From positions 32,001 to 96,000 of IMG/VR virus record IMGVR_UViG_3300017917_002938: a stretch of 64,000 bases of DNA, one strand, 5' to 3'. The position numbers and the translations under genes were made by a program. This DNA comes from a virus. This document shows, piece after piece, positions 24,757-36,299 of this stretch (position 1 is the first letter of the stretch; every line of letters starts with the position of its first letter). The notes below the pieces were generated by a model that saw only the letters and a list, made by a program, of their open reading frames with translations, did no database searches and was not told the origin of the DNA.

Positions 24757-24784
24757 GAATAGCCTTTCAATGTTATGATAAAAA

Positions 24785-25091
24785 GAGAAGTTTTTATTCT
24801 GTTGCCAAGTCAAAAACCTCTCCACAAAAAACTCCGGTCAGCGGTTAGGCTGCCAGTGCAAATCTTTCATCGTTTGCGTTTACTTTTTTTGCTTGATTTA
24901 CGGTCATCGCCTACCGTGTTGCCGTCTCTACTATCTACCCCTGTCGAAACCATGACTGGCCCATTAGAAAGAACTCTTTAGTATAGTCTGTAGCACTTGT
25001 CTGTCTCTATACAGGATGAAGAATTCTTTCTGGTGGACCAGGCGGGAGTCGAACCCGCGTCCAGAAGTCCTTCGCTTTGAAGGGATCACAA
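24785..25091 (-). ncRNA. ssrA: Two-piece (permuted) tmRNA; tag ANDERFALAA
   Basis: Acceptor piece ends ..GACGCGGGTTCGACTCCCGCCTGGTCCACCA at 25031; coding piece starts GGGCCAGTCATGGTTTCGAC at 24962; GGGCCAG/CTGGTCC stem with G3:U70; tag ORF 24877-24845; outer ends approximate. Confidence 0.92.
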
Positions 25092-25098
25092 CAATTCT

Positions 25099-25308
25099 TT
25101 ACTTAGGTGCGCCGGTTGGCTCGGCCTTCTTGTGTGTTTTGATCTTCTTACACTCTTGAACTTTTTTCCCGTCCTTGCCTACGACAGGCTTACCATCTTT
25201 ACCTACTTTATCATGACATACTTCTTTAACTACTGCTTCTGCATGCACTGGTGCAATAGAAGTAACTAAAAATAGTGATAATGCAATGGTTGACAATTGT
25301 TTTAACAT
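25099..25308 (-). CDS. Small secreted Lys-rich protein
   Basis: Signal peptide, two Cys, AGGAG RBS. Confidence 0.65.
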   Translation of the reverse strand: MLKQLSTIALSLFLVTSIAPVHAEAVVKEVCHDKVGKDGKPVVGKDGKKVQECKKIKTHKKAEPTGAPK

Positions 25309-27603: not shown

Positions 27604-27678
27604 TGGTGGGCTGACTAGGAATTGAACCTAGACTCAATCGATTATGAGTCGACTGCTTTACCATTAAGCTATCAGCCC
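27604..27678 (-). tRNA. tRNA-Ile2(CAT)
   Basis: Cloverleaf; GTCGACTCATAATCGAT anticodon arm like lysidine-accepting ileX; CCA encoded. Confidence 0.8.
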
Positions 27679-28337
27679 GTATTATTTAAAAGTTGATCGG
27701 TAAATTCTAATAGTAATTTATGTTGCCTGCCTTCATGATACAACCCTCTCATCCAGCTATGAATGGTGTACCAGTAACGTTGACTTTCTGGATGACAACC
27801 TATAAGGCCGATGTTGTTTTGAATTGCTGCCATAACATCACCATTCTTATACCTGGCAACAGTTTTAAACATGCTTTCGTTTCCTACTATAGCACAACCG
27901 TCAAAAAAGAACATCCTTTCTTTGTTACCGTTCCATTCAACTTCTATATTTTTTGCATGAGGGCGTCTTGTATCAGTTCCTGGTCTCCGTATATATTGAA
28001 CAGTATCGGCTTCTTTTAGTATATTAAAATAGTGCTTACCGGCCCAATATGCTCCCATACAAATGCCAAGGTACTTGCCTCCTCCGTTTACAAATTTCAT
28101 TACGTGATCGTGATTTTCTCTCATCAAGTAATCAAACGAATCGGAGGATCCTTCCCCTCCAGGAAAAATCACTACATCAACGTCATCAAAAAAATCATCC
28201 TCAACTTGATGTCGAGTAAATATTTTAAATTTGTAGTGTGGTGTAAGTGATTCTATTGTTCCGTTAACGCATTGTATGGAACACTTTGGATGATGTAAAA
28301 ATATTGCTGCCGTTGTGTGCTTGTATGTCAAAGACAT
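27672..28337 (-). CDS. BPL_N / class I glutamine-amidotransferase-like protein
   Basis: [24 protein letters not shown]. Confidence 0.8.
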
Positions 28338-28350
28338 AACCTCGTGTTGT

Positions 28351-28433
28351 TGGTACCCGAGACGGGATTCGAACCCGTACGCTTTTGGCGGGGGATTTTA
28401 AGTCCCCTGTGTCTACCGTTCCACCACCCGGGC
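28351..28433 (-). tRNA. tRNA-Leu(TAA)
   Basis: Cloverleaf with variable arm, CCA. Confidence 0.92.
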
Positions 28434-28438
28434 GACTA

Positions 28439-28657
28439 TTAATTGTTATTTTTCTTTACAAAATCTACAATCTTTTGAGCTTCTGTTAACACTGCCTCTA
28501 CAGTTGGTGGCTCTTCTTGGAAATCGGGACTAATCATTCCTGTCTGAGGGTTGCGAGTGCGTTCCATTTTGGAATAAAAAGACTGGTTTACTTGATCACG
28601 TGCAAGTTCTACCGCACGCACTACAAAATTAGACTCATTAGATTGATTGATAATCAT
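28439..28657 (-). CDS. Hypothetical protein
   Basis: AGGAG RBS; PTVEAVLTEAQKIVDFV. Confidence 0.6.
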   Translation of the reverse strand: MIINQSNESNFVVRAVELARDQVNQSFYSKMERTRNPQTGMISPDFQEEPPTVEAVLTEAQKIVDFVKKNNN

Positions 28658-28668
28658 TATAACTCCTA

Positions 28669-29325
28669 TTAACGAATTGTATATTGTCCGACAACTGCAC
28701 CAGGTTTTTGTAGTGTAGCATCGCGACGCTTCTTGTATTCCTCGTTGTCCACTTCAAGCAATTCAATTACACCATCAGAAGCACGAGACTGTTTATCTAG
28801 CTCTTTAAATTTCTTCTCTCTCAGCTCATTTCTAGAATTATTGTCAACGAGACGGCGGCTTTCATCGAGGGGGAGAGATAGGAGTACAAAAGCTCTATAA
28901 CCGTCTTTTTCTTTCGTTAGGAAAAGCTTTTCGCGTTTATACATTGAGAGTGATTGCTTAGTAACAATTTTAGAAACACGATCTACTTCCCTATCAATAC
29001 TTTTCATATCAGCAGTACCCTGTTCGTTTACTGACTCACGAATCATAGATTCTACTACTACGTTAACGCGATTGGCTAGTTCGACCCTGGCATTCATCAT
29101 TGCTTTGTCGATAGCAAATTGCATGTGTTTAGATACATCGGTTGCACTAACGTAGATCATTTTATCCGTAGTTAACGAGTCGTTGGTGTACCAATCAGGT
29201 ACCTCTCCTTTGAACTCAGCTACCGCTACCGTTTTTACTCCATCGGTAGTATTAGTTTTAAACGCTGAACATCCAGTCTCAAGAATACCAGCTGCGCACA
29301 GCAATAAAATTGTTAACATTCTCAT
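28669..29325 (-). CDS. Lipoprotein (LPP20-like)
   Basis: Lipobox-like TGC, VPDWY, QFAIDKAMMNARVELA. Confidence 0.65.
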   Translation of the reverse strand: MRMLTILLLCAAGILETGCSAFKTNTTDGVKTVAVAEFKGEVPDWYTNDSLTTDKMIYVSATDVSKHMQFAIDKAMMNARVELANRVNVVVESMIRESVNEQGTADMKSIDREVDRVSKIVTKQSLSMYKREKLFLTKEKDGYRAFVLLSLPLDESRRLVDNNSRNELREKKFKELDKQSRASDGVIELLEVDNEEYKKRRDATLQKPGAVVGQYTIR

Positions 29326-29334
29326 TTCACATCC

Positions 29335-30054
29335 TCATAGTCTAAAAATAGAATAATCCTTATAAACAACTCTTCGAGAGTACACCGGTAGAGTTTTAAT
29401 AAGCTCGTCCAAATGCTTCTTACTGATGTTATCGTAGTCGAAATTAAGCTTGGTCGACGTAAAAATAAACACCAATGTCTCTTTAGAGAAGTTAACGCCG
29501 TCTTTTAGTTTTGCTTCAATATGAATCGAGTTCAATTTATAAAAGTCGGAAGGAAAAATAAACTTACCGTTCACTACTCTATCCATATTATATTGAAGCG
29601 GATGAATTAAATCAACCCCATCTTTATAAACAGCAAAGACGTACATATGAACGGGTTGACGAGCATTAACGGTATACTCTACTATGTCACCGTTTTTAAA
29701 TTCACTCTTACCGTTTACTGTTACGTAGATTGATGCTGGATTATTTACTAAAACTTTCACTTCAGAATGACATATACCATTCCGTATGATTGTCTTTGAG
29801 GAAATTACTTTATTAATTTGACCCGCAGCATATGTCTCTGATTCTTTTTGATACTGACATGATGGGTCTTTGTTTTTAGTGTCTGCACAAACGTACGTTT
29901 CCACAGATTCAATAAGCATTCCGTTAGCTTGTTTAAGAGCGTGTTCAAATGCTTTTGACTCTGCAATTGCACAATTGTTATGTTCTCCCTTACCGTCATA
30001 TACCTGAGCGGTTACGACAGAAGGGAGAAGCAATGCTAGAAGTAATTTTTTCAT
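29335..30054 (-). CDS. Secreted protein, possible DUF4384-like C-terminal domain
   Basis: Signal peptide; GDIVEYTVNARQPVHMYVF..LIHP. Confidence 0.5.
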   Translation of the reverse strand: MKKLLLALLLPSVVTAQVYDGKGEHNNCAIAESKAFEHALKQANGMLIESVETYVCADTKNKDPSCQYQKESETYAAGQINKVISSKTIIRNGICHSEVKVLVNNPASIYVTVNGKSEFKNGDIVEYTVNARQPVHMYVFAVYKDGVDLIHPLQYNMDRVVNGKFIFPSDFYKLNSIHIEAKLKDGVNFSKETLVFIFTSTKLNFDYDNISKKHLDELIKTLPVYSRRVVYKDYSIFRL

Positions 30055-30060
30055 ACTAGT

Positions 30061-30090
30061 ATTGTAACGAAAATGAAAAAATAAAGCAAC
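30061..30090 (-). promoter_or_regulatory. Phage early promoter (leaderless transcript likely)
   Basis: GTTGCTTTATTT..TACAAT, 17-nt spacer; ATG 6 nt downstream. Confidence 0.7.
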
Positions 30091-30101
30091 TAGTTTATGT
30101 C

Positions 30102-30176
30102 TGGCCCGGCGTGAGGGAATCGAACCCCCATTCGCACTTTAGAAGAATGCTGTCCTATCCATTGAACGAACGCCAG
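30102..30176 (-). tRNA. tRNA-Arg(TCT)
   Basis: Cloverleaf, CCA. Confidence 0.9.
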
Positions 30177-30185
30177 GTATTGTTA

Positions 30186-30656
30186 TTATGCTGCTTTCAG
30201 AGATTTAAATCTATCGGCTGCATATGAGGCTGCGAAAGCTTCTGGTTTAACCAAAGGTACAACATTACATGTACCACGAATGTATCCAATAGCTTCATTC
30301 ACCACGCATGATGATCCGTGCATTTCGTTAGGGTTGATGTCAAGATGAACTTGAACATCTCTGCCTTCTAGTACATCAGCAAGCTTCAAATACAATTCAC
30401 TAACCTTATACACCTCATTCATTAGACGGTAACGTGGGCGATTAAACTTTTGATCGTAGTCACGTTCTTTTTGAATTTCACCAAATAGTTTACAACCGTT
30501 ATTACCGTTGATGTGAACGACAATAGCTAGAATGTAATCCGCCCACCATTCCTTACCAACTTTATATCTCTCAGAGTCACAACCAATATAGATTTTTGTT
30601 TCTGGAGATTGCGCCTGAATGAATTCTTTTACTTCTTCTAGATCAAGCTTACGCAT
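30186..30656 (-). CDS. RNase H-like YkuK/DUF458 protein
   Basis: IYIGCDS..RLMNEV..VHLDINP..VKPEAFAASYAADR. Confidence 0.85.
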   Translation of the reverse strand: MRKLDLEEVKEFIQAQSPETKIYIGCDSERYKVGKEWWADYILAIVVHINGNNGCKLFGEIQKERDYDQKFNRPRYRLMNEVYKVSELYLKLADVLEGRDVQVHLDINPNEMHGSSCVVNEAIGYIRGTCNVVPLVKPEAFAASYAADRFKSLKAA

Positions 30657-30671
30657 AGTACTACCTTTCTA

Positions 30672-30745
30672 TGGCACCCCGAGAGGGATTCGAACCCCCA
30701 CCAACGGTTTTGGAGACCGCAATGCTGCCGTTACACCATCGAGAT
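30672..30745 (-). tRNA. tRNA-Trp(CCA)
   Basis: Cloverleaf, CCA. Confidence 0.9.
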
Positions 30746-30756
30746 ACGTTTTTTAT

Positions 30757-31017
30757 TTAGGGTGAGGATATGAGTTTGATCCGGCAACGAAGCCGCTTAG
30801 CAATATGCAATTAGCAATATGCAATAAGCAGACCACAAAGCATAGGATTCCGTTTATCAACAAGCAGCGACTTTCGTCTTGTATGGAACGGAGCAACAAG
30901 CATGGGTTGGTCGGGATTGATCGGATTCGGGTTAACAAGGCCCAAACCTAGCTAGTAAGACATTTCAAGTGTCAACTAGATTGCAACAACGCCCCCTTCA
31001 CTCCCCCATACCCTCAA
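30757..31017 (-). ncRNA. Unannotated structured RNA with tandem heptamers
   Basis: 5'/3' closing stem GAGGGTATGGG/CTCATATCCTC, several hairpins, five tandem TGCWWAK units. Confidence 0.6.
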
Positions 31018-31021
31018 AACT

Positions 31022-31603
31022 TTATAGAATACCTTCCGCTTTAAGAGTCTGAACGGTTAGTTCAGACAATGTAATCAAGGTATTGACATTGAGTTGTAAG
31101 AGTTTATCTTGCAGCTCTTGACGATCACGCTTGAGGTTTCTAACTGCATTTTTTGCAGCGTCAATATCTGATTGCAACACTACGCTGGTTTCAACGTTGT
31201 TAAAACGGTCACCGTAAATGGATGCACGCGCAGAATCGGAAGGTTGTTCTTTGAACTTTTGAATTCGTGCACTGATTTCAATCTGACTCTTACGAGGTTT
31301 GAGACCTGCAATCACACTATGTACGGCCATAGAAGCGTCTGTAGCTTCTACTTCTGCTAAGATAGTGTTAATGTCAGCATCAGCATTAGCCTTACCTACG
31401 CGTTTACGAATGTCGTACATTGCGTTGATAAGTGATAGTTTACGAGTAACTGTATCGTTTAACTCTGCACGGTTTTTGGTAAGAGTATCTTCTACCCCAT
31501 CTGTAAACTCAGATACCTGAGTCTCAGATTCAAATTTTATTCCGTTAATAGTTTTACGAATCTCGGCTTGAATTGCATTAGCTTTACGTAGATTAACTTG
31601 CAT
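31022..31603 (-). CDS. Coiled-coil protein, weakly resembling the DIP1984/DUF6847 family
   Basis: ATG after AAGGA; NLRKANAIQAEI..YDIRKRVGKAN..LKRDRQELQDKLLQLNVNT. Confidence 0.6.
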   Translation of the reverse strand: MQVNLRKANAIQAEIRKTINGIKFESETQVSEFTDGVEDTLTKNRAELNDTVTRKLSLINAMYDIRKRVGKANADADINTILAEVEATDASMAVHSVIAGLKPRKSQIEISARIQKFKEQPSDSARASIYGDRFNNVETSVVLQSDIDAAKNAVRNLKRDRQELQDKLLQLNVNTLITLSELTVQTLKAEGIL

Positions 31604-31628
31604 GTTATTTCCTTTCAATCAATAATGT

Positions 31629-31658
31629 ATTCTATATGAATTTTTTAATAAGATCAAC
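31629..31658 (-). promoter_or_regulatory. Phage early promoter
   Basis: GTTGATCTTATT..TAGAAT, 17-nt spacer. Confidence 0.7.
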
Positions 31659-31659
31659 T

Positions 31660-31735
31660 TGGTGCTGCCTCGTGGGATCGAACCACGTTCCTCGGTTCTT
31701 CAGACCGGTGCTATGACCACATCAGCTAAAGCAGC
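31660..31735 (-). tRNA. tRNA-Phe(GAA)
   Basis: Cloverleaf, CCA. Confidence 0.88.
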
Positions 31736-31742
31736 ATTAAAT

Positions 31743-31817
31743 TGGTACCTGGTCACGGTTTCGAACCGCGGACCCTCTCCTTGTAAGGGAGACGCTCTAC
31801 CCCTGAGCTAACCAGGC
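31743..31817 (-). tRNA. tRNA-Val(TAC)
   Basis: Cloverleaf, CCA. Confidence 0.92.
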
Positions 31818-31828
31818 ATAATTCTCTT

Positions 31829-31904
31829 TGGGGTACTATAAGAGGATCGAACTCTTACTATCTCGGTCACAGCGAGAGGTGCAGACCACTACACTAATAG
31901 TACC
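31829..31904 (-). tRNA. tRNA-His(GTG)
   Basis: Cloverleaf, G-1:C73, CCA. Confidence 0.9.
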
Positions 31905-31914
31905 CCAAAAAGAA

Positions 31915-32148
31915 CTAAGTTATTTGTTTCTGTACTCTACCTATACGACTATTTTTACTCCAATCATATTTGGTTCCATCTGGACATTTTCCATCTTTGA
32001 CAGAATCTACTCCAAATTTACCAACAATCTCTGTAACGCCGTTTGTAATAGTTACAAACTTTCCATATGCTTTTGCAAACTCCAATGCATCATTCAATGT
32101 TGGACTTGCGTTTAGTATCATACCGTTTTCTATTTTAATATTCCACAT
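31915..32148 (-). CDS. Hypothetical protein
   Basis: 77 aa, AAGGA RBS, fits between tRNAs. Confidence 0.65.
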   Translation of the reverse strand: MWNIKIENGMILNASPTLNDALEFAKAYGKFVTITNGVTEIVGKFGVDSVKDGKCPDGTKYDWSKNSRIGRVQKQIT

Positions 32149-32157
32149 AAAAATCCT

Positions 32158-32231
32158 TGGCCGGGGTGCTAGGGCTCGAACCTAGAATAGCAGAGTCAAA
32201 GTCTGCGGTGTTACCATTACACTACACCCCA
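32158..32231 (-). tRNA. tRNA-Gln(TTG)
   Basis: Cloverleaf, CCA. Confidence 0.92.
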
Positions 32232-32239
32232 ATAATGAA

Positions 32240-32455
32240 TTTGTTGTAGTAGTGCCGCCATCGTTATCGGCACCATTCACCTGGATTAACTAGCCCGGGC
32301 AGGACTCGGTAAGTCACTTGGGATACTCATCCAGTTAGCAACCATACTGCGGCGATCTTCCGATCGCCCGGGAGTTGAACCCGTCCCCTTCTACTATATC
32401 AGTCCTTCGAAGAAACCTTTATAGCGTGACATTCTCTTGCTGACACTACAACAAA
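32240..32455 (-). ncRNA. Unannotated multi-stem RNA containing a T-arm mimic
   Basis: 11-bp closing stem TTTGTTGTAGT/ACTACAACAAA; nested GTCAC/GTGAC and AGGAC/GTCCT; CGGG-TTCAACT-CCCG; GGCGATC-GGAA-GATCGCC. Confidence 0.7.
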
Positions 32456-32458
32456 ACT

Positions 32459-32535
<77 letters not shown>

Positions 32536-32541
32536 ATAACT

Positions 32542-32615
32542 TGGTGCCCCTTGACAGAATCGAACTGCCGTACCCGGGTTACAAAGCCGGTGTAATACCA
32601 CTATACTAAAAGGGC
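32542..32615 (-). tRNA. tRNA-Thr(TGT)
   Basis: Cloverleaf, CCA. Confidence 0.88.
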
Positions 32616-32620
32616 AAAAA

Positions 32621-32695
32621 TGGCTCCGGTGGCTGGGATCGAACCAACGACCAATTGATTAACAGTCAACTGCACTACCGCTGTGCTACACCGGA
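32621..32695 (-). tRNA. tRNA-Asn(GTT)
   Basis: Cloverleaf, CCA. Confidence 0.92.
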
Positions 32696-32701
32696 ATAAC
32701 C

Positions 32702-32775
32702 TGGTTGCGGGAGAGGGAATCGAACCCCCATCTGGAGCTTATGAGACTCCTGAATTACCGTTACTCTATCCCGCG
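32702..32775 (-). tRNA. tRNA-fMet(CAT), initiator-type
   Basis: CGCGGG 5' end with C1:A72 mismatch, CAT anticodon. Confidence 0.82.
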
Positions 32776-32782
32776 TCAAAAT

Positions 32783-32857
32783 TGGCGGTCTCAAGGGGTA
32801 ACGATCCCCTTCTTTATGCGTGACAGGCATACGTGCGTCCATGAACACTTTGAGACC
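32783..32857 (-). tRNA. tRNA-Asp(GTC)
   Basis: Cloverleaf; atypical ATCGTTA T-loop. Confidence 0.85.
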
Positions 32858-33044
32858 TATATTCTTTGCACGGCTACGTTTTTCAAGTCGCCCCGTACTG
32901 AGTTTACAACCCTGTCGCCACCTTTGCTTATTCTGCTGTGTGGATCATCATACCAGATTCTGCTTACGTCTGCGCTAACGGTCTTCTGGACACCGGATCT
33001 TTATCGCGTAATCAAGCGCCTCTGCCACGCTGAGGAGCGGAAAC

Positions 33045-33133
33045 TGGTGGAAGTGGTAGGATTCGAACCTACAGCGTTTCTTATGTGGCGGATTTACAGT
33101 CCGTTGCCTTCAACCAATTCAGCACACACTTCC
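33045..33133 (-). tRNA. tRNA-Tyr(GTA)
   Basis: Cloverleaf with variable arm, CCA. Confidence 0.9.
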
Positions 33134-33138
33134 AATTT

Positions 33139-33222
33139 TGGTGCCCCAGGAGAGACTCGAACTCTCACGCCTTTCGACATTGGCTTCTAAGACCAACGTG
33201 TCTACCATTCCACCACCGGGGC
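33139..33222 (-). tRNA. tRNA-Leu(TAG)
   Basis: Cloverleaf with variable arm, CCA. Confidence 0.92.
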
Positions 33223-33226
33223 AAAT

Positions 33227-33382
33227 TACCATTTGTTTAGTGTTATCGTGCCTATTTGTCAACAATGTAGCTAGCACTGACAAGCGAATAACAGTTATAT
33301 CAGACAGTGTTGGTCGCACCCTTACTGTCGCGTAGTCATAGCGTCCTATGACGATACCTTTGATAACACTAAACAAATGGTA
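33227..33382 (-). repeat. 21-bp perfect inverted repeat enclosing three hairpins; one arm includes the tRNA-Glu ACCA end
   Basis: TACCATTTGTTTAGTGTTATC (33227-33247) / GATAACACTAAACAAATGGTA (33362-33382). Confidence 0.85.
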
Positions 33383-33453
33383 CACCGTACGGGAATCGAA
33401 CCCGTCTTACCAACGTGAAAGGCTGGTGTCCTAAACCGATAGACGAACGGTGC
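33378..33453 (-). tRNA. tRNA-Glu(TTC)
   Basis: Cloverleaf, CCA. Confidence 0.9.
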
Positions 33454-33480
33454 ATTTAACTTTTTTAAAGAACGAAACGA

Positions 33481-33510
33481 ATTATATTCTGCGATGGAAA
33501 ATAAATCAAC
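33481..33510 (-). promoter_or_regulatory. Phage early promoter inside tRNA array
   Basis: GTTGATTTATTT..TATAAT, 17-nt spacer. Confidence 0.8.
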
Positions 33511-33584
33511 TGGTCCTTTCGAGAGGTAACGATCCTCTGTCTCTCGGTTATCAGCCGAGTGCTCTACCTTTGAGCTACGAAAGG
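33511..33584 (-). tRNA. tRNA-Ile(GAT)
   Basis: Cloverleaf; atypical ATCGTTA T-loop. Confidence 0.85.
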
Positions 33585-33585
33585 T

Positions 33586-33660
33586 TGGTGGTAATGAAGA
33601 GACTCGAACTCCTAACCTACACCGTATGAAGGTGCCGCACTACCATTGTGCTACATTACC
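33586..33660 (-). tRNA. tRNA-Met(CAT), elongator-type
   Basis: Cloverleaf, G1:C72, CCA. Confidence 0.82.
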
Positions 33661-34193
33661 AGTCTAGATGGTTTTACAGCCTGCAATGCAAACTTTAGCG
33701 TATCGTCGGTCTGAAAGTCTAAATGTACACATTTAAAATCTGCCTTATAGATATACCTAAAATCTGACATCGATGTCTTACCAATTTGCCTTGTGTATTC
33801 GGATTGATCGAGAAATATAAGAGATTCTTTTTGAATCACTCTCGTATGACTCGGATCTCCCCATACCCAGGGCGAGTTAATATTTGGACAGGTAGCCATC
33901 AAGAAACCTCCTGGTTTCAGAATTCTCCAGAACTCACTAAACTGAGCAAAGAAAAATTTATAGTCTCCCTGTCTTCCGGTATGTTCTAGAACTTCATATG
34001 CATGAATTTCATCAAACGTATTATCCTCAAAAACCGAATATGGTATGTTACAAAGATCCCACACTATATCCGGTTTATGATCGCGGTTAATATCAAGGGT
34101 AGTTAGATTATTCCATTCAGGATTACCATCATGAATGACTTTCTCTCTACGACTACCACATCCAATTAATAGTTCTTTTTTATAGTTTACCAT
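33651..34193 (-). CDS. Class I SAM-dependent methyltransferase (Methyltransf_11-like)
   Basis: LLIGCG, FDEIHAYEVLEH, WRILKPGG, WGDPSHTR. Confidence 0.85.
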   Translation of the reverse strand: MVNYKKELLIGCGSRREKVIHDGNPEWNNLTTLDINRDHKPDIVWDLCNIPYSVFEDNTFDEIHAYEVLEHTGRQGDYKFFFAQFSEFWRILKPGGFLMATCPNINSPWVWGDPSHTRVIQKESLIFLDQSEYTRQIGKTSMSDFRYIYKADFKCVHLDFQTDDTLKFALQAVKPSRLVM

Positions 34194-34290
34194 ATAGAAA
34201 CATACTAAATCTGCGACACCGTCAAATGCCGCATCGCCTAGTTGACGCTAGACCGCCAGAGTGTGGCGTTCAGTATGTTTTTATATGGTA
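34188..34290 (-). repeat. 19-bp inverted repeat joining the tRNA-Lys ACCA end to the methyltransferase start codon
   Basis: 34188-34206 / 34272-34290, one mismatch. Confidence 0.8.
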
Positions 34291-34360
34291 GGGGCACAGA
34301 GAATCGAACTCTGATTAATAGGTTAAAAGCCTACTACTTTAGCCGTTAAGTTATACCCCC
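34286..34360 (-). tRNA. tRNA-Lys(TTT)
   Basis: Cloverleaf, CCA. Confidence 0.9.
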
Positions 34361-34482
34361 AGCAATTCTTGTTTTTGAGCTCTACGTAGTGCCTTATTAG
34401 ACTTACGATGAACTCCTGCTTTACGAAAAAGCGCTAAACGAACGAAGCAGTTACGTTCGCGCGCGATGGGTTTTCGTTTCAT
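34351..34482 (-). CDS. Small basic protein (43 aa) with stop inside tRNA-Lys
   Basis: GAGG RBS; MKRKPIARERNCFVRLALFRKAGVHRKSNKALRRAQKQELLGV*. Confidence 0.7.
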   Translation of the reverse strand: MKRKPIARERNCFVRLALFRKAGVHRKSNKALRRAQKQELLGV

Positions 34483-34580
34483 TTTTTCCTCACTTTAAGT
34501 TTTTGTCGATTACTACTATTAGTATTATTACGATAAGAAGTACTGAGACCGCCCCATGTTGTTTCTCCTTAACAAGTCTA

Positions 34581-34610
34581 ATTATAGATGTAGTTGGAAA
34601 ATAAGGCAAC
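34581..34610 (-). promoter_or_regulatory. Phage early promoter
   Basis: GTTGCCTTATTT..TATAAT, 17-nt spacer. Confidence 0.75.
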
Positions 34611-34638
34611 AACTTTTTTTCTAACTATTTCTAGTTAC

Positions 34639-34716
34639 TGGAGTGTCGAGTCAGATTTGAACTGACGGCTTTACGGGTTTGCAATCCGTTCCCTTGGACC
34701 TCTCGGGCATCGACAC
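34639..34716 (-). tRNA. tRNA-Cys(GCA)
   Basis: Cloverleaf, U73, CCA. Confidence 0.88.
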
Positions 34717-34721
34717 ATATC

Positions 34722-34795
34722 TGGTGCTGCTAGGAGGTAACGATCCTCCGTTTCCGCCTTACCAAGGCGGTGTAATACCTTTATACTATAGCAGC
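34722..34795 (-). tRNA. tRNA-Thr(GGT)
   Basis: Cloverleaf; atypical ATCGTTA T-loop. Confidence 0.85.
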
Positions 34796-34800
34796 AAAAA

Positions 34801-34888
34801 TGGCGGAGGGTATCAGACTCGAACTGATGCGCCCATTTCTGAACGACGGTTTAGCAAACCGCTGGTTTAACCGCTCACCCAACCCTCC
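34801..34888 (-). tRNA. tRNA-Ser(GCT)
   Basis: Cloverleaf with long variable arm, G73, CCA. Confidence 0.92.
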
Positions 34889-35475
34889 TAAGTAGCAAAC
34901 TTCCACTCTGTTTTTTCTTTAAACCCTACCTCACCACCTTGCTCTTTTATTCTTTTGAACACCTCTTCAAGCAGTATTGGTCTAAAGTCAATCTGCTCAA
35001 CACAGACAGAGAAATAGCGAGGATCAATTTTTTTTCCATGTTTAGTAAATCCATCATCCATTTTTACTCTATTCGAATGGAGATGTCCATGAACGTTGCA
35101 GCCAAACCGATACAGTTGGTCAGGGTGCACTGGTACATGAGTAAAAATACAACCGTTCATTACATGGCTGCCTCTGATATCTCTAAAGTATTGAGTGTAT
35201 TCTTCAAGTTTAAAAATATCGTGGTTACCTTTAATCAACACTTTGTCTCCGTTCAACCGACCTAGCGTTTTTAATGCTTTACGGTTGATAACAACGTCGC
35301 CTAGATGATATACTTTGTCATTGGGTCGAACAGTTTCGTTCCACCGCTTGACCATTTCTTCATCCATCTCATCCGGGTTATCCCACGGCCTGAGCTTCTC
35401 TCCGTCTTCACGTGTAAATCGGCATACGCCGGCGTGACCGAAGTGCGTATCGCTAACTACGAATACCGATGGCAT
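34888..35475 (-). CDS. Calcineurin-like metallophosphoesterase
   Basis: SDTHFGH, LGD, KGNHD, THVP, HGHLH. Confidence 0.92.
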   Translation of the reverse strand: MPSVFVVSDTHFGHAGVCRFTREDGEKLRPWDNPDEMDEEMVKRWNETVRPNDKVYHLGDVVINRKALKTLGRLNGDKVLIKGNHDIFKLEEYTQYFRDIRGSHVMNGCIFTHVPVHPDQLYRFGCNVHGHLHSNRVKMDDGFTKHGKKIDPRYFSVCVEQIDFRPILLEEVFKRIKEQGGEVGFKEKTEWKFAT

Positions 35476-35495
35476 ATACGCCTCCTTTCATGTTA

Positions 35496-35590
35496 TGGTA
35501 CTCCCGACAGGATTCGAACCTGTATCATCCCCTCATCTAGAGGCATCGCCGAGGTATAAGCTCGGAGTTTTACCGTTAAACTACAGGAGC
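35496..35590 (-). tRNA. tRNA with TAT anticodon (nominal Ile) and long variable arm
   Basis: 7-bp acceptor, CCGAG-CTTATAC-CTCGG anticodon arm, ~24-nt variable region, TTCGAAT T-loop, ACCA. Confidence 0.75.
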
Positions 35591-35598
35591 ATCTAAAG

Positions 35599-35672
35599 TG
35601 GTCTGGGTGGCAAGAATCGAACTTGCACCTCAAGTATCCAAGACTCGTCGACTACCACTATCCTACACCCAG
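35599..35672 (-). tRNA. tRNA-Pro(TGG), second copy
   Basis: C1:G72, A73, TGG anticodon. Confidence 0.82.
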
Positions 35673-35680
35673 ATAAAAAT

Positions 35681-35756
35681 TGGTGGACCGGCGGGGTAAC
35701 GATCCCCGATCTTCGCATTGCAAGTGCGACGTGTAGCCCTCTATCACTACCAGCCC
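35681..35756 (-). tRNA. tRNA-Ala(TGC)
   Basis: G3:U70; atypical ATCGTTA T-loop. Confidence 0.87.
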
Positions 35757-35806
35757 AAAATGACTTACTACTTGTCCTATTATACGCCATAAGTCAAGGC
35801 GAGTTT

Positions 35807-35899
35807 TGGCGGAGACGGTGAGACTCGAACTCACACACCCATTTCTGAGCCTTCGGTTTTCAAGACCGCTGCCGCTATGCCGATTCGGCTAACATCTCC
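35807..35899 (-). tRNA. tRNA-Ser(TGA)
   Basis: Cloverleaf with long variable arm, CCA. Confidence 0.92.
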
Positions 35900-35904
35900 T
35901 TATT

Positions 35905-35978
35905 TGGAGCGGATAGGGGAAATCGAATCCCACTCTGCACAGCTTGGAAGGCTGGCGACACACCTCGTGCTTACCCGC
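35905..35978 (-). tRNA. tRNA-Gly(TCC), reduced D-arm
   Basis: GCGG acceptor, U73, TCC anticodon. Confidence 0.78.
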
Positions 35979-35982
35979 ATAA

Positions 35983-36061
35983 ACCATATAAAAGTTCTTT
36001 GCTCAGTATGGACTCTGACTATGCCTTGTCGTTACAAGCATTCAAAGAACTTTTATATGGT
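35983..36061 (-). repeat. 19-bp perfect inverted repeat including the tRNA-Leu(CAA) ACCA end
   Basis: ACCATATAAAAGTTCTTTG (35983-36001) / CAAAGAACTTTTATATGGT (36043-36061). Confidence 0.85.
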
Positions 36062-36139
36062 ACCCCTGCTCGGACTCGAACCGAGACTTACTAACACTCC
36101 TTTTGAGAGAGCTGCCTTTACCAATTTGGCCACAGGGGC
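36058..36139 (-). tRNA. tRNA-Leu(CAA)
   Basis: Cloverleaf, CCA. Confidence 0.88.
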
Positions 36140-36142
36140 ACA

Positions 36143-36217
36143 TGGAGCGGGCAGCGAGGATCGAACTCGCAACTAAACCTTGGCAAGGTCTCGTGTTACC
36201 ATTAGCACCATGCCCGC
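36143..36217 (-). tRNA. tRNA-Gly(GCC)
   Basis: Cloverleaf, CCA. Confidence 0.92.
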
Positions 36218-36223
36218 ATCATA

Positions 36224-36299
36224 TGGCCGGTCCTGAGAGAATCGAACTCCCACTTCAGCGTTCGTAGCGCTGCGTAATCATCCATTTTACTAAGGACCG
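36224..36299 (-). tRNA. tRNA-Arg(ACG)
   Basis: Cloverleaf, CCA; first tRNA of the array. Confidence 0.9.

Follow-up and report, generated by a model that had tools for sequence, protein, structure and literature searches.

Arrays of short triplets spaced along single-stranded RNA are found in two Bacillus systems, TRAP with the trp leader and HutP with the hut mRNA, in which conserved triplets alternate with non-conserved spacers: TRAP sites comprise about 11 (G/U)AG triplets separated by 2–3 nucleotides (nt), and HutP sites are NAG (UAG) triplets with 4-nt spacers, i.e. a 7-nt period. Many copies of a short motif, suggesting multivalent protein capture, are also present in the non-coding RNAs CsrB, RsmZ and CrcZ, cellular transcripts which have GGA in hairpin loops or A-rich CA motifs at irregular spacing, show no genetic linkage to their protein and lack a long closing helix. 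Bacteriophages carry stable non-tRNA transcripts as well, such as the 119–139 nt rnaC and rnaD RNAs (species 1 and 2) of T4, which lie among the phage transfer RNA (tRNA) genes and are freed by tRNA-processing enzymes, and the larger GOLLD and ROOL RNAs, which are often located beside tRNA genes, have many conserved unpaired positions and no linked protein gene; GOLLD, ROOL and OLE form homo-oligomers without protein (PMC12286853). Here we describe a non-coding RNA located next to a gene for a 193-amino acid (aa) helical protein in 64,000 nt of viral DNA (positions 32,001 to 96,000 of IMG/VR record IMGVR_UViG_3300017917_002938; this whole stretch is referred to as the window). It represents a new structured RNA family with a heptad array and an ancient linkage to one protein family, maintained through several gene orders.

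A conserved structured RNA adjoining the helical-protein gene

On the minus strand of the window, and within a tRNA cluster, a promoter is followed by the 193-aa open reading frame (ORF), a 276-nt stretch poor in ORFs and a tRNA-Trp gene. A preliminary description of this DNA had noted a helical-protein gene followed by a non-coding segment, and this layout is retained here, with the ORF at 31603-31022 and the RNA starting at 31016. The parts of the unit are given below in the direction of transcription, with helices labelled P:

31629-31657, minus strand: σ70-type promoter, -35 TTGATC, 17-nt spacer, -10 TAGAAT, matching 9/12 consensus positions
31022-31603, minus strand: gene for the 193-aa all-helical protein, ATG at 31603, stop codon TAA at 31024-31022
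31017-31021, minus strand: AGUUU linker of 5 nt between stop codon and RNA; UAA(A)GUUU is kept in most main-clade relatives
30760-31016, minus strand: whole structured non-coding RNA, about 257 nt long, with P1 and the ACCC tail included (alignment A3, 46 members)
31005-31016, minus strand: P1 5' arm UGAGGGUAUGGG, purine-rich, pairing with 30774-30763
30952-30979, minus strand: hairpin P3, CUAGU-UGACA / UGUC-ACUAG with loop CUUGAAA, in both the minimum free energy (MFE) and centroid folds
30926-30946, minus strand: hairpin P4, UUUGGG / CCCGAA, 91% paired, 3/3 pairs altered on both sides
30887-30895, minus strand: UGCUC, invariant in 37 sequences, and P5 5' arm (CCGUU, 30891-30887)
30869-30878, minus strand: hairpin P6, GAC-GAAA-GUC, within the P5 loop, 83% paired, 4/4 pairs altered on both sides (90% paired in the distant set)
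30856-30868, minus strand: conserved single strand GCUGCUUGUUGAU in the P5 loop (family form GCUGCUUGUUGMU), with invariant T/G columns
30850-30854, minus strand: P5 3' arm AACGG, with covariation in the main clade and the distant set
30797-30838, minus strand: six YUG-N4 heptads, UUGUGGU CUGCUUA UUGCAUA UUGCUAA UUGCAUA UUGCUAA, from Tandem Repeats Finder and a pattern scan
30782-30795, minus strand: small hairpin P7, CGGC-UUCGUU-GCCG, in fold and alignment, followed by GAUCAAA, the window's form of the UGAAUUGA motif
30763-30774, minus strand: P1 3' arm CUCAUAUCCUCA, with covariation in 46 sequences
30760-30762, minus strand: unpaired 3' tail, CCC after A30763 (which may pair with U31016), R-C-C in most relatives

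From 5' to 3', the element consists of the P1 5' arm, a purine-rich stretch (GAUAAGAGAG in most members), two hairpins, UGCUC-P5 enclosing P6 and the single strand, the six heptads, P7, the UGAAUUGA motif, the P1 3' arm and R-C-C. In the relatives it measures 245–275 nt, begins 5–10 nt past the stop codon and is closed by a 10–12-bp helix followed by the unpaired R-C-C, which is ACC in most, with GCC, AUC and UCC also found and UACC in the phages of alpha-proteobacteria. In the window the closing helix pairs GAGGGTATGGG (31015-31005) with CTCATATCCTC (30774-30764), and reaches 12 bp when U31016-A30763 is counted. This helix and the other stems of the preliminary description were all recovered at their positions, namely 30979-30952, the longer P5 stem TCCGTT/AACGGA at 30892-30887/30854-30849, 30878-30869 and 30795-30782. 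The RNA is present in single copy in the phage genome, and the window has every feature of the proposed family: a terminal helix of 10–14 bp with R-C-C tail, UGCUC-P5 around UUGNNNNUUG, at least three to six YUG-N4 heptads and an adjoining gene of the 184–199-aa family.

The segment is a real, conserved, structured non-coding RNA. In the 46 sequences of alignment A3, 88% of the cells make a standard pair, and the covariation score is 0.478, compared with 0.08–0.12 when the partners are slid by 1–3 columns, while none of 500 shuffles reached 0.478. P1 is paired in 96% of cells with 10/11 pairs altered on both sides, and its arms differ by lineage yet remain complementary (GAGGAACAAUG/CAUUGUUCCUC, GAGAGUAAGA/UCUUACUCUC, GGAAGUGGGA/UCUCACUUCC, GAGAAGGA/UCCUUCUC). 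Similarly, P5 is 96% paired in the main clade and 94% paired in 22 distant members, with 5/5 pairs altered on both sides in the latter, and the single strand in its loop is kept in distant clades in the form UUGCNNNUUG. The P4 loop is a conserved YCUUGAAAA / CCUGAAA in the relatives and also in distant members read by eye (CcrColossus left out), and P7 is GCGA/UCGC in most relatives and GCGG/CCGU or CGGC/GCCG in others. With regard to P3, the relatives have a hairpin at the same place with different stem sequences, and its counted support is moderate (68% paired), owing to poor alignment in this part. Little apart from P1 was recovered when RNAalifold was applied to the raw MAFFT alignment, and G-U-tolerant noise dominated a brute-force search for additional covarying column pairs. 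The preliminary description had named a 61-aa ORF overlying the RNA as a possible conserved protein; it is not conserved, as the frame shuts after 7 codons in the nearest subtype (L015) and within 3–31 codons in most others. The 7-nt period of the heptads is incompatible with codon structure, which likewise argues that the RNA is non-coding.

The heptad array

The periodic heptamers are the most conserved single-stranded feature of the RNA. Tandem Repeats Finder reported period 7 (4.6 copies) and period 14 at 30797-30830, and in 37 sequences the UG of each heptad is invariant while the four spacer bases vary. The spacing is 7 nt, sometimes increasing to 8–10 nt between units 4 and 5. Two more units lie in the internal loop (GCUGCUUGUUG, 30868-30858), and in distant members the single strand there contains two UUG units at a distance of 7 nt. 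The tandem 7-mers of the preliminary description are thus genuine, but its UGC-N4 unit is not the conserved one, which is YUG-N4, present as six units in the array and two in the internal loop.

Such arrays are rare. A run of at least four YUG heptads occurs once in 128 kb (the window, both strands), a run of at least five is found at this site alone in the 163.5-kb genome, and the reversed control pattern gave zero matches. A strict five-heptad scan of 185,579 bacterial species representatives returned 23 matches, none of which had the rest of the RNA or the protein, so that no cellular copy was found in this set.

Linkage of the RNA to the protein gene

For comparison with other phages, 114 loci around homologues of the protein were gathered from metagenome and IMG/VR contigs. 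The RNA is located right after the stop codon in 55/55 non-identical loci that encode a protein at least 38.5% identical and have a long-enough downstream flank. An nhmmer profile of the RNA matched 104 of 258 collected loci, all 104 of which encode the protein, with no RNA-only locus. A DNA pattern of the heptads only was searched in 2.9 million viral contigs, and 15 of the 80 loci listed have the rest of the RNA, each of these (15/15) with the gene immediately upstream; chance accounts for the remaining 65.

The gene order is not constant in more distant relatives. In one clade (L083-L093, protein 35–37% identical) the RNA is located upstream of the gene. It follows an RNaseH_like gene and has a TTGATT...TATAAT promoter of its own, a 14-bp P1 and a GCC tail. 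In the distant clades heptad runs are found before or after the gene, or with a small ORF in between. Here we used a covariance model, R1, which covers the 3' domain only and scores the window copy, itself part of the R1 seed alignment, at 100.9 bits. Full-length same-strand matches to R1 lie beside the gene in 17/26 distant loci (E≤1, with about one false match expected in the whole search), and four more loci have heptad runs; on the contig of a 360-kb jumbo phage (L097) the RNA was recognised by eye.

The same arrangement is found in phages in culture. Four of them have an unannotated gap of 273–311 nt after the gene, in each case with P1, P5 and heptads: Vibrio phage 2.275.O (NVP2275O_333), Brevundimonas phages vB_BpoS-Kabachok and vB_BpoS-Gurke, and Caulobacter phage CcrColossus (gp272; the gp272-gp273 gap). 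The CcrColossus copy contains six perfect UUG-N4 units, the sole array of at least five units in its 280 kb, and genome-wide searches with R1 gave a single match each in CcrColossus and Kabachok, in the gap beside the homologous gene. R1 does not detect the copy of Vibrio phage 2.275.O, which was recognised by eye only. In the phages of alpha-proteobacteria the module is located outside tRNA clusters, the Kabachok copy being about 1.5 kb upstream of the major capsid gene, which indicates that the tRNA context is not essential, whereas the protein neighbour is. Vibrio phage KVP40 has no array of at least five heptads. A marginal R1 match (E 0.34) was seen in KVP40 (AY283928) at 86196-86286 on the minus strand, and the KVP40-like phage Vp_R1 has a structural look-alike of the protein.

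Hence the RNA and the protein gene have been tightly inherited together, in any relative order, by large phages that are only very distantly related, and the pairing put forward in the preliminary description is an evolutionary tie, with homologues of the gene carrying the RNA. This constant adjacency in over a hundred large phage contigs suggests that the two products probably work together as an RNA-protein particle. An unlikely but serious alternative is that the RNA is a cis-acting element of the protein's own mRNA, part of the 3' untranslated region (UTR), or of the 5' UTR in the rearranged clade, which stabilises the transcript and/or autoregulates translation. The RNA always shares a transcript with the gene, be it before or after it, P1 begins within 8 nt of the stop codon, so that terminating ribosomes would touch it, and terminal helices block exonucleases; furthermore, the phage autoregulators gp32 and RegA of T4 recognise periodic or U/G-rich single-stranded sites in the mRNAs that encode them. 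However, at about 255 nt, and with six or more conserved helices and numerous invariant unpaired bases, the element far exceeds what a stabiliser or operator needs, its retention 5', 3' or one ORF away from the gene is hard to square with translational control at one site, and the terminal helix with R-C-C overhang resembles a matured stable RNA.

The helical protein

Homologues of the protein number in the hundreds in metagenomes: a profile search of 1.84 billion representatives gave 1831 clusters at 50% identity (E≤1e-3), and nearly all of the 150 best clusters listed are 184–199 aa long. No Pfam, NCBIfam or PADLOC family matches the protein, and in PHROGs it matches phrog_25230 only, a family of unknown function. 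An AlphaFold2 model based on a 76-sequence alignment (pLDDT confidence score 89, predicted template modelling score 0.69) consists of long helices and two short terminal strands.

Among solved structures the best match by both Foldseek (E 7e-3, template modelling (TM) scores 0.36/0.44) and VIA (Z 10.1, root-mean-square deviation (rmsd) 8.0 Å over 140 residues) is 3kdq, the DIP1984 protein of Corynebacterium diphtheriae. The preliminary description had proposed a loose resemblance to the DIP1984/DUF6847 family, and of this a weak fold-level likeness between model and structure stands: the two aligners cover nearly the full length, but with an rmsd of 8–12 Å, and the scores are within the range of unrelated helical proteins. 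A sequence-profile match was not obtained, as DIP1984/DUF6847 was absent from the Pfam and NCBIfam matches of the window protein and from the 25 most-matched families of 76 family members, and a PDB profile search at E≤10 did not include 3kdq. As the function of DIP1984 is itself unknown, the match explains nothing about the role of the phage protein. Predicted viral structures (BFVD) match the model far better, with TM scores of 0.66–0.83 for CcrColossus K4K6G4, Erwinia phage pEa_SNUABM_47 and Vibrio phage Vp_R1. Look-alikes were also found in the giant viruses Yasminevirus and Catovirus, both tRNA-rich (TM 0.5–0.7, E 4e-6 and 1.5e-4), and this likeness of predicted models may reflect either homology or a common helical arrangement.

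A candidate early RNA-protein particle

We lean slightly towards an early phage RNA-protein particle, in which the heptad array is the multivalent platform for the helical protein. The region would then be one early transcription unit of a T4-like freshwater phage with two cooperating products, the 193-aa all-helical protein and the structured RNA, about 255 nt long and stable. The six YUG heptads, together with the two in the internal loop, would be single-stranded, and several protein copies would bind, one per heptad, by analogy with TRAP and HutP. The particle would act early in infection on a host process, and the location within clusters of tRNA and transfer-messenger RNA (tmRNA) genes in many phages hints at host translation or RNA metabolism as its target.

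Several observations weigh against this interpretation. The adjacency of RNA and gene might also stem from cis-regulation of the protein's own mRNA. The fold energy of the single window sequence is unexceptional (MFE -77.8 kcal/mol, z = -1.47), and therefore the case for structure rests on covariation, as the window sequence by itself would not prove a structured RNA. In some subgroups the heptads could pair with each other, e.g. CCUGC/GCAGG between units 2 and 5, so that the array may not be fully single-stranded. Finally, the protein is approximately neutral (family median isoelectric point 6.6, net charge about 0), and Pfam and NCBIfam scans of the window protein and 76 family members gave no recognisable RNA-binding domain; the neutral charge neither supports nor excludes sequence-specific RNA binding.

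A protein that is not basic and has no RNA-binding domain would also fit a second alternative, which we judge distinctly unlikely, namely that the RNA is a decoy or sponge whose 6–8 UUG sites titrate a hexameric or cooperative host RNA-binding protein, with the helical protein having a separate job. Multi-site sponge RNAs such as CsrB, RsmZ and CrcZ are well established, and strong early σ70 expression would suit a host takeover. The UUG motif is kept across phages of alpha-, gamma- and probably beta-proteobacteria, and hence any decoy target would be a conserved host protein; we know of no host protein that recognises YUG-N4 repeats. The genetic linkage speaks against a decoy, as the protein gene is present in each of the 104 RNA loci, and the RNA lies close to nearly all homologues with identities as low as 28%, which is unusual for functionally independent genes in mosaic phage genomes.

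Returning to the RNA-protein particle, a more far-reaching version is put forward tentatively, with the balance tilting somewhat against it: a new kind of ribonucleoprotein in which 6–8 UUG triplets wrap around a homo-oligomer of a new all-helical RNA-binding fold, and which is expressed at high level from an early σ70 promoter and takes over a conserved process of the host, with translation or RNA turnover the most plausible target, in phages ranging from T4-like to phiCbK-type and Vibrio jumbo phages. If true, this would mean a new RNA-binding fold together with a new means by which phages take over the host early in infection, and might illuminate why phage tRNA clusters harbour stable non-tRNA RNAs, a question since the T4 species 1 and 2 RNAs. 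Whichever way it functions, the two-part module is widespread, with about 1800 protein clusters in freshwater, marine and sewage phages that belong to three or more classes of proteobacteria as hosts, and its RNA was missed by annotation. The motif architecture of the RNA, with its strictly 7-nt-spaced UUG array, corresponds to no protein-RNA recognition system compared here, and the covariation of the RNA is as clear as could be wished for. The pair is amenable to testing at the bench, as it is present in isolated phages of Brevundimonas and Vibrio and in CcrColossus, which infects a genetic model organism.

Comparison with known RNAs and systems

No match to the element was found in Rfam 15 at E≤1 (the window region and 10 relatives gave only tRNAs, GOLLD elsewhere, and noise), nor in the whole window at gathering thresholds, and megablast and blastn searches with the region against 50,697 phage records were without match. 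The literature searched contained no description of the RNA or the protein, although the 8495 unnamed candidate RNAs from IMG/VR in PMC10690425 (2023) might include the RNA. A tmRNA or tRNA-like identity, for which a T-arm, a G3-U70 acceptor stem and a tag reading frame would be expected, was rejected, since ARAGORN and Rfam call nothing on the element and the real tmRNA of the phage is located at 24776-25145; an RNase P RNA identity was rejected solely because the Rfam scan at E≤1 was without match.

The closest analogies in function are TRAP and HutP, although triplet identity and protein fold speak against membership of either system. The phage RNA shares the 7-nt period with HutP sites, and six units would suit a hexamer, but its triplets are YUG, with six (plus two) units and 4-nt spacers, and its array is located inside a large folded RNA instead of an attenuator. 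Neither the window protein nor 76 family members gave a TrpBP or HutP Pfam match, and the candidate partner is all-helical. The motifs of CsrB, RsmZ and CrcZ are absent from the phage RNA, and so is the irregular spacing of those motifs.

With regard to phage RNAs, the genomic context of T4 rnaC and rnaD is as in the clade of the window, but these RNAs have no homology to the phage RNA described here. R1 gave no match in the T4 tRNA region and marginal ones elsewhere in T4 (E 0.5–1), and T4 is without a heptad array. T4 e.6, a 197-aa protein encoded near the T4 tRNA genes, was considered as a homologue of the helical protein and is unrelated (hhalign probability 0.2%). GOLLD and ROOL belong to different families and are 2–3 times larger. 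An RNA-only assembly or ribozyme-like RNA of the GOLLD/ROOL kind, with the gene merely a conserved neighbour, seems very improbable to us: the many invariant unpaired nucleotides and conserved loops and the presence of GOLLD in the tRNA clusters of relatives would be compatible with it, but an RNA of about 255 nt is much smaller than GOLLD or ROOL, and the strict linkage to the protein gene would be left unexplained.

The preliminary description had also considered a type III toxin-antitoxin-like module, in which the RNA would neutralise a toxic protein, a reading we find scarcely credible. Type III antitoxins consist of tandem repeats of about 34–36 nt upstream of the toxin gene, with a terminator between them, and the toxins are endoribonucleases of the ToxN/AbiQ type. 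The locus shares with these ToxIN-type systems the general layout only, a protein gene adjoining a repeat-bearing RNA, and differs in repeat length, gene order, toxin fold and genomic behaviour. The repeats here are 7 nt (only periods 7 and 14, over 34 nt) and lie within a large fold, there being no tandem repeats of 30–40 nt; the RNA is usually downstream of the gene, as in the main clade; the protein model is an all-helical bundle without ToxN-like fold and without PADLOC or Pfam match; and lytic phages keep the module vertically, as a core part of their genomes.

Promoter and proposed maturation of the RNA

The gene's own promoter, which the preliminary description had already proposed, is supported by the relatives: about 55 nt before the ATG, 40/52 related loci score at least 10/12 against TTGACA-17-TATAAT, compared with 0/52 control stretches inside the gene. 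The conserved promoter, which is strong and of host type, indicates that the unit is an autonomous transcription unit, and judging from its promoter sequence it is probably expressed early and strongly.

In the freshwater clade a tRNA gene (Trp, Gly or Val) starts about 1–25 nt from the tail in most loci checked, and RNase P cleavage at the tRNA 5' end would thus define the 3' side of the RNA. In Vibrio phage 2.275.O, a marine jumbo phage, an intrinsic terminator, AAAGCCACCC-UA-GGGUGGCUUUUUUUU (L259 3265-3292), follows the RNA in place of a tRNA, which suggests that 3'-end formation differs between lineages. In the proposed maturation pathway the precursor would be cut between the stop codon and P1 at an RNase E-type AG|UUU site, and the conserved UAA(A)GUUU before P1 is a candidate match to the RNase E consensus, RN|WUU. 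A second cut would be made by RNase P at the 5' end of the next tRNA, or the transcript would end at the terminator in other phages. The ends would then be trimmed back to the 12-bp terminal helix, with the leftover R-C-C overhang acting as stop signal for 3' exonucleases; stable RNAs matured by exonucleases usually end up with a terminal helix and a short C-rich overhang.

Genomic context

The source viral record is 163,543 bp long, about 93% complete, and contains T4-type baseplate genes. The neighbouring features in the window are:

27604-36299, minus strand: tRNA cluster with 29 tRNA genes, including three tRNA-Met-type and tRNA-Ile(tat) genes
30672-30745, minus strand: tRNA-Trp, beginning 14 nt past the RNA tail
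30186-30656, minus strand: RNaseH_like gene (PF04308, YkuK-type; phrog_11311), Pfam E 1.6e-17
24776-25145, minus strand: circularly permuted two-piece tmRNA (RF01850 beta_tmRNA, 154.6 bits; RF04321 tmRNA_permuted, 146 bits)

The RNaseH_like gene is a same-strand neighbour within 2.5 kb of the pair in 35/67 loci, mostly directly upstream of the helical-protein gene or of the RNA, and with 67–87% identity its conservation greatly exceeds that of the helical protein; possibly it forms a third part of the module. Long non-tRNA spacers elsewhere in the tRNA array, e.g. 32232-32458 and 33223-33377, may hold more stable RNAs. GOLLD had no match at gathering score anywhere in the window. In two related freshwater phages a GOLLD RNA (RF02032) with an embedded tRNA was found (L078 1832-2295, 203 bits; L009 1722-2182, 185 bits), which in both cases lies within the same tRNA cluster and precedes the helical-protein gene by a few hundred bases. 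Finally, a betaproteobacterial host is hinted at by the permuted tmRNA, which follows closely downstream of the tRNA cluster.

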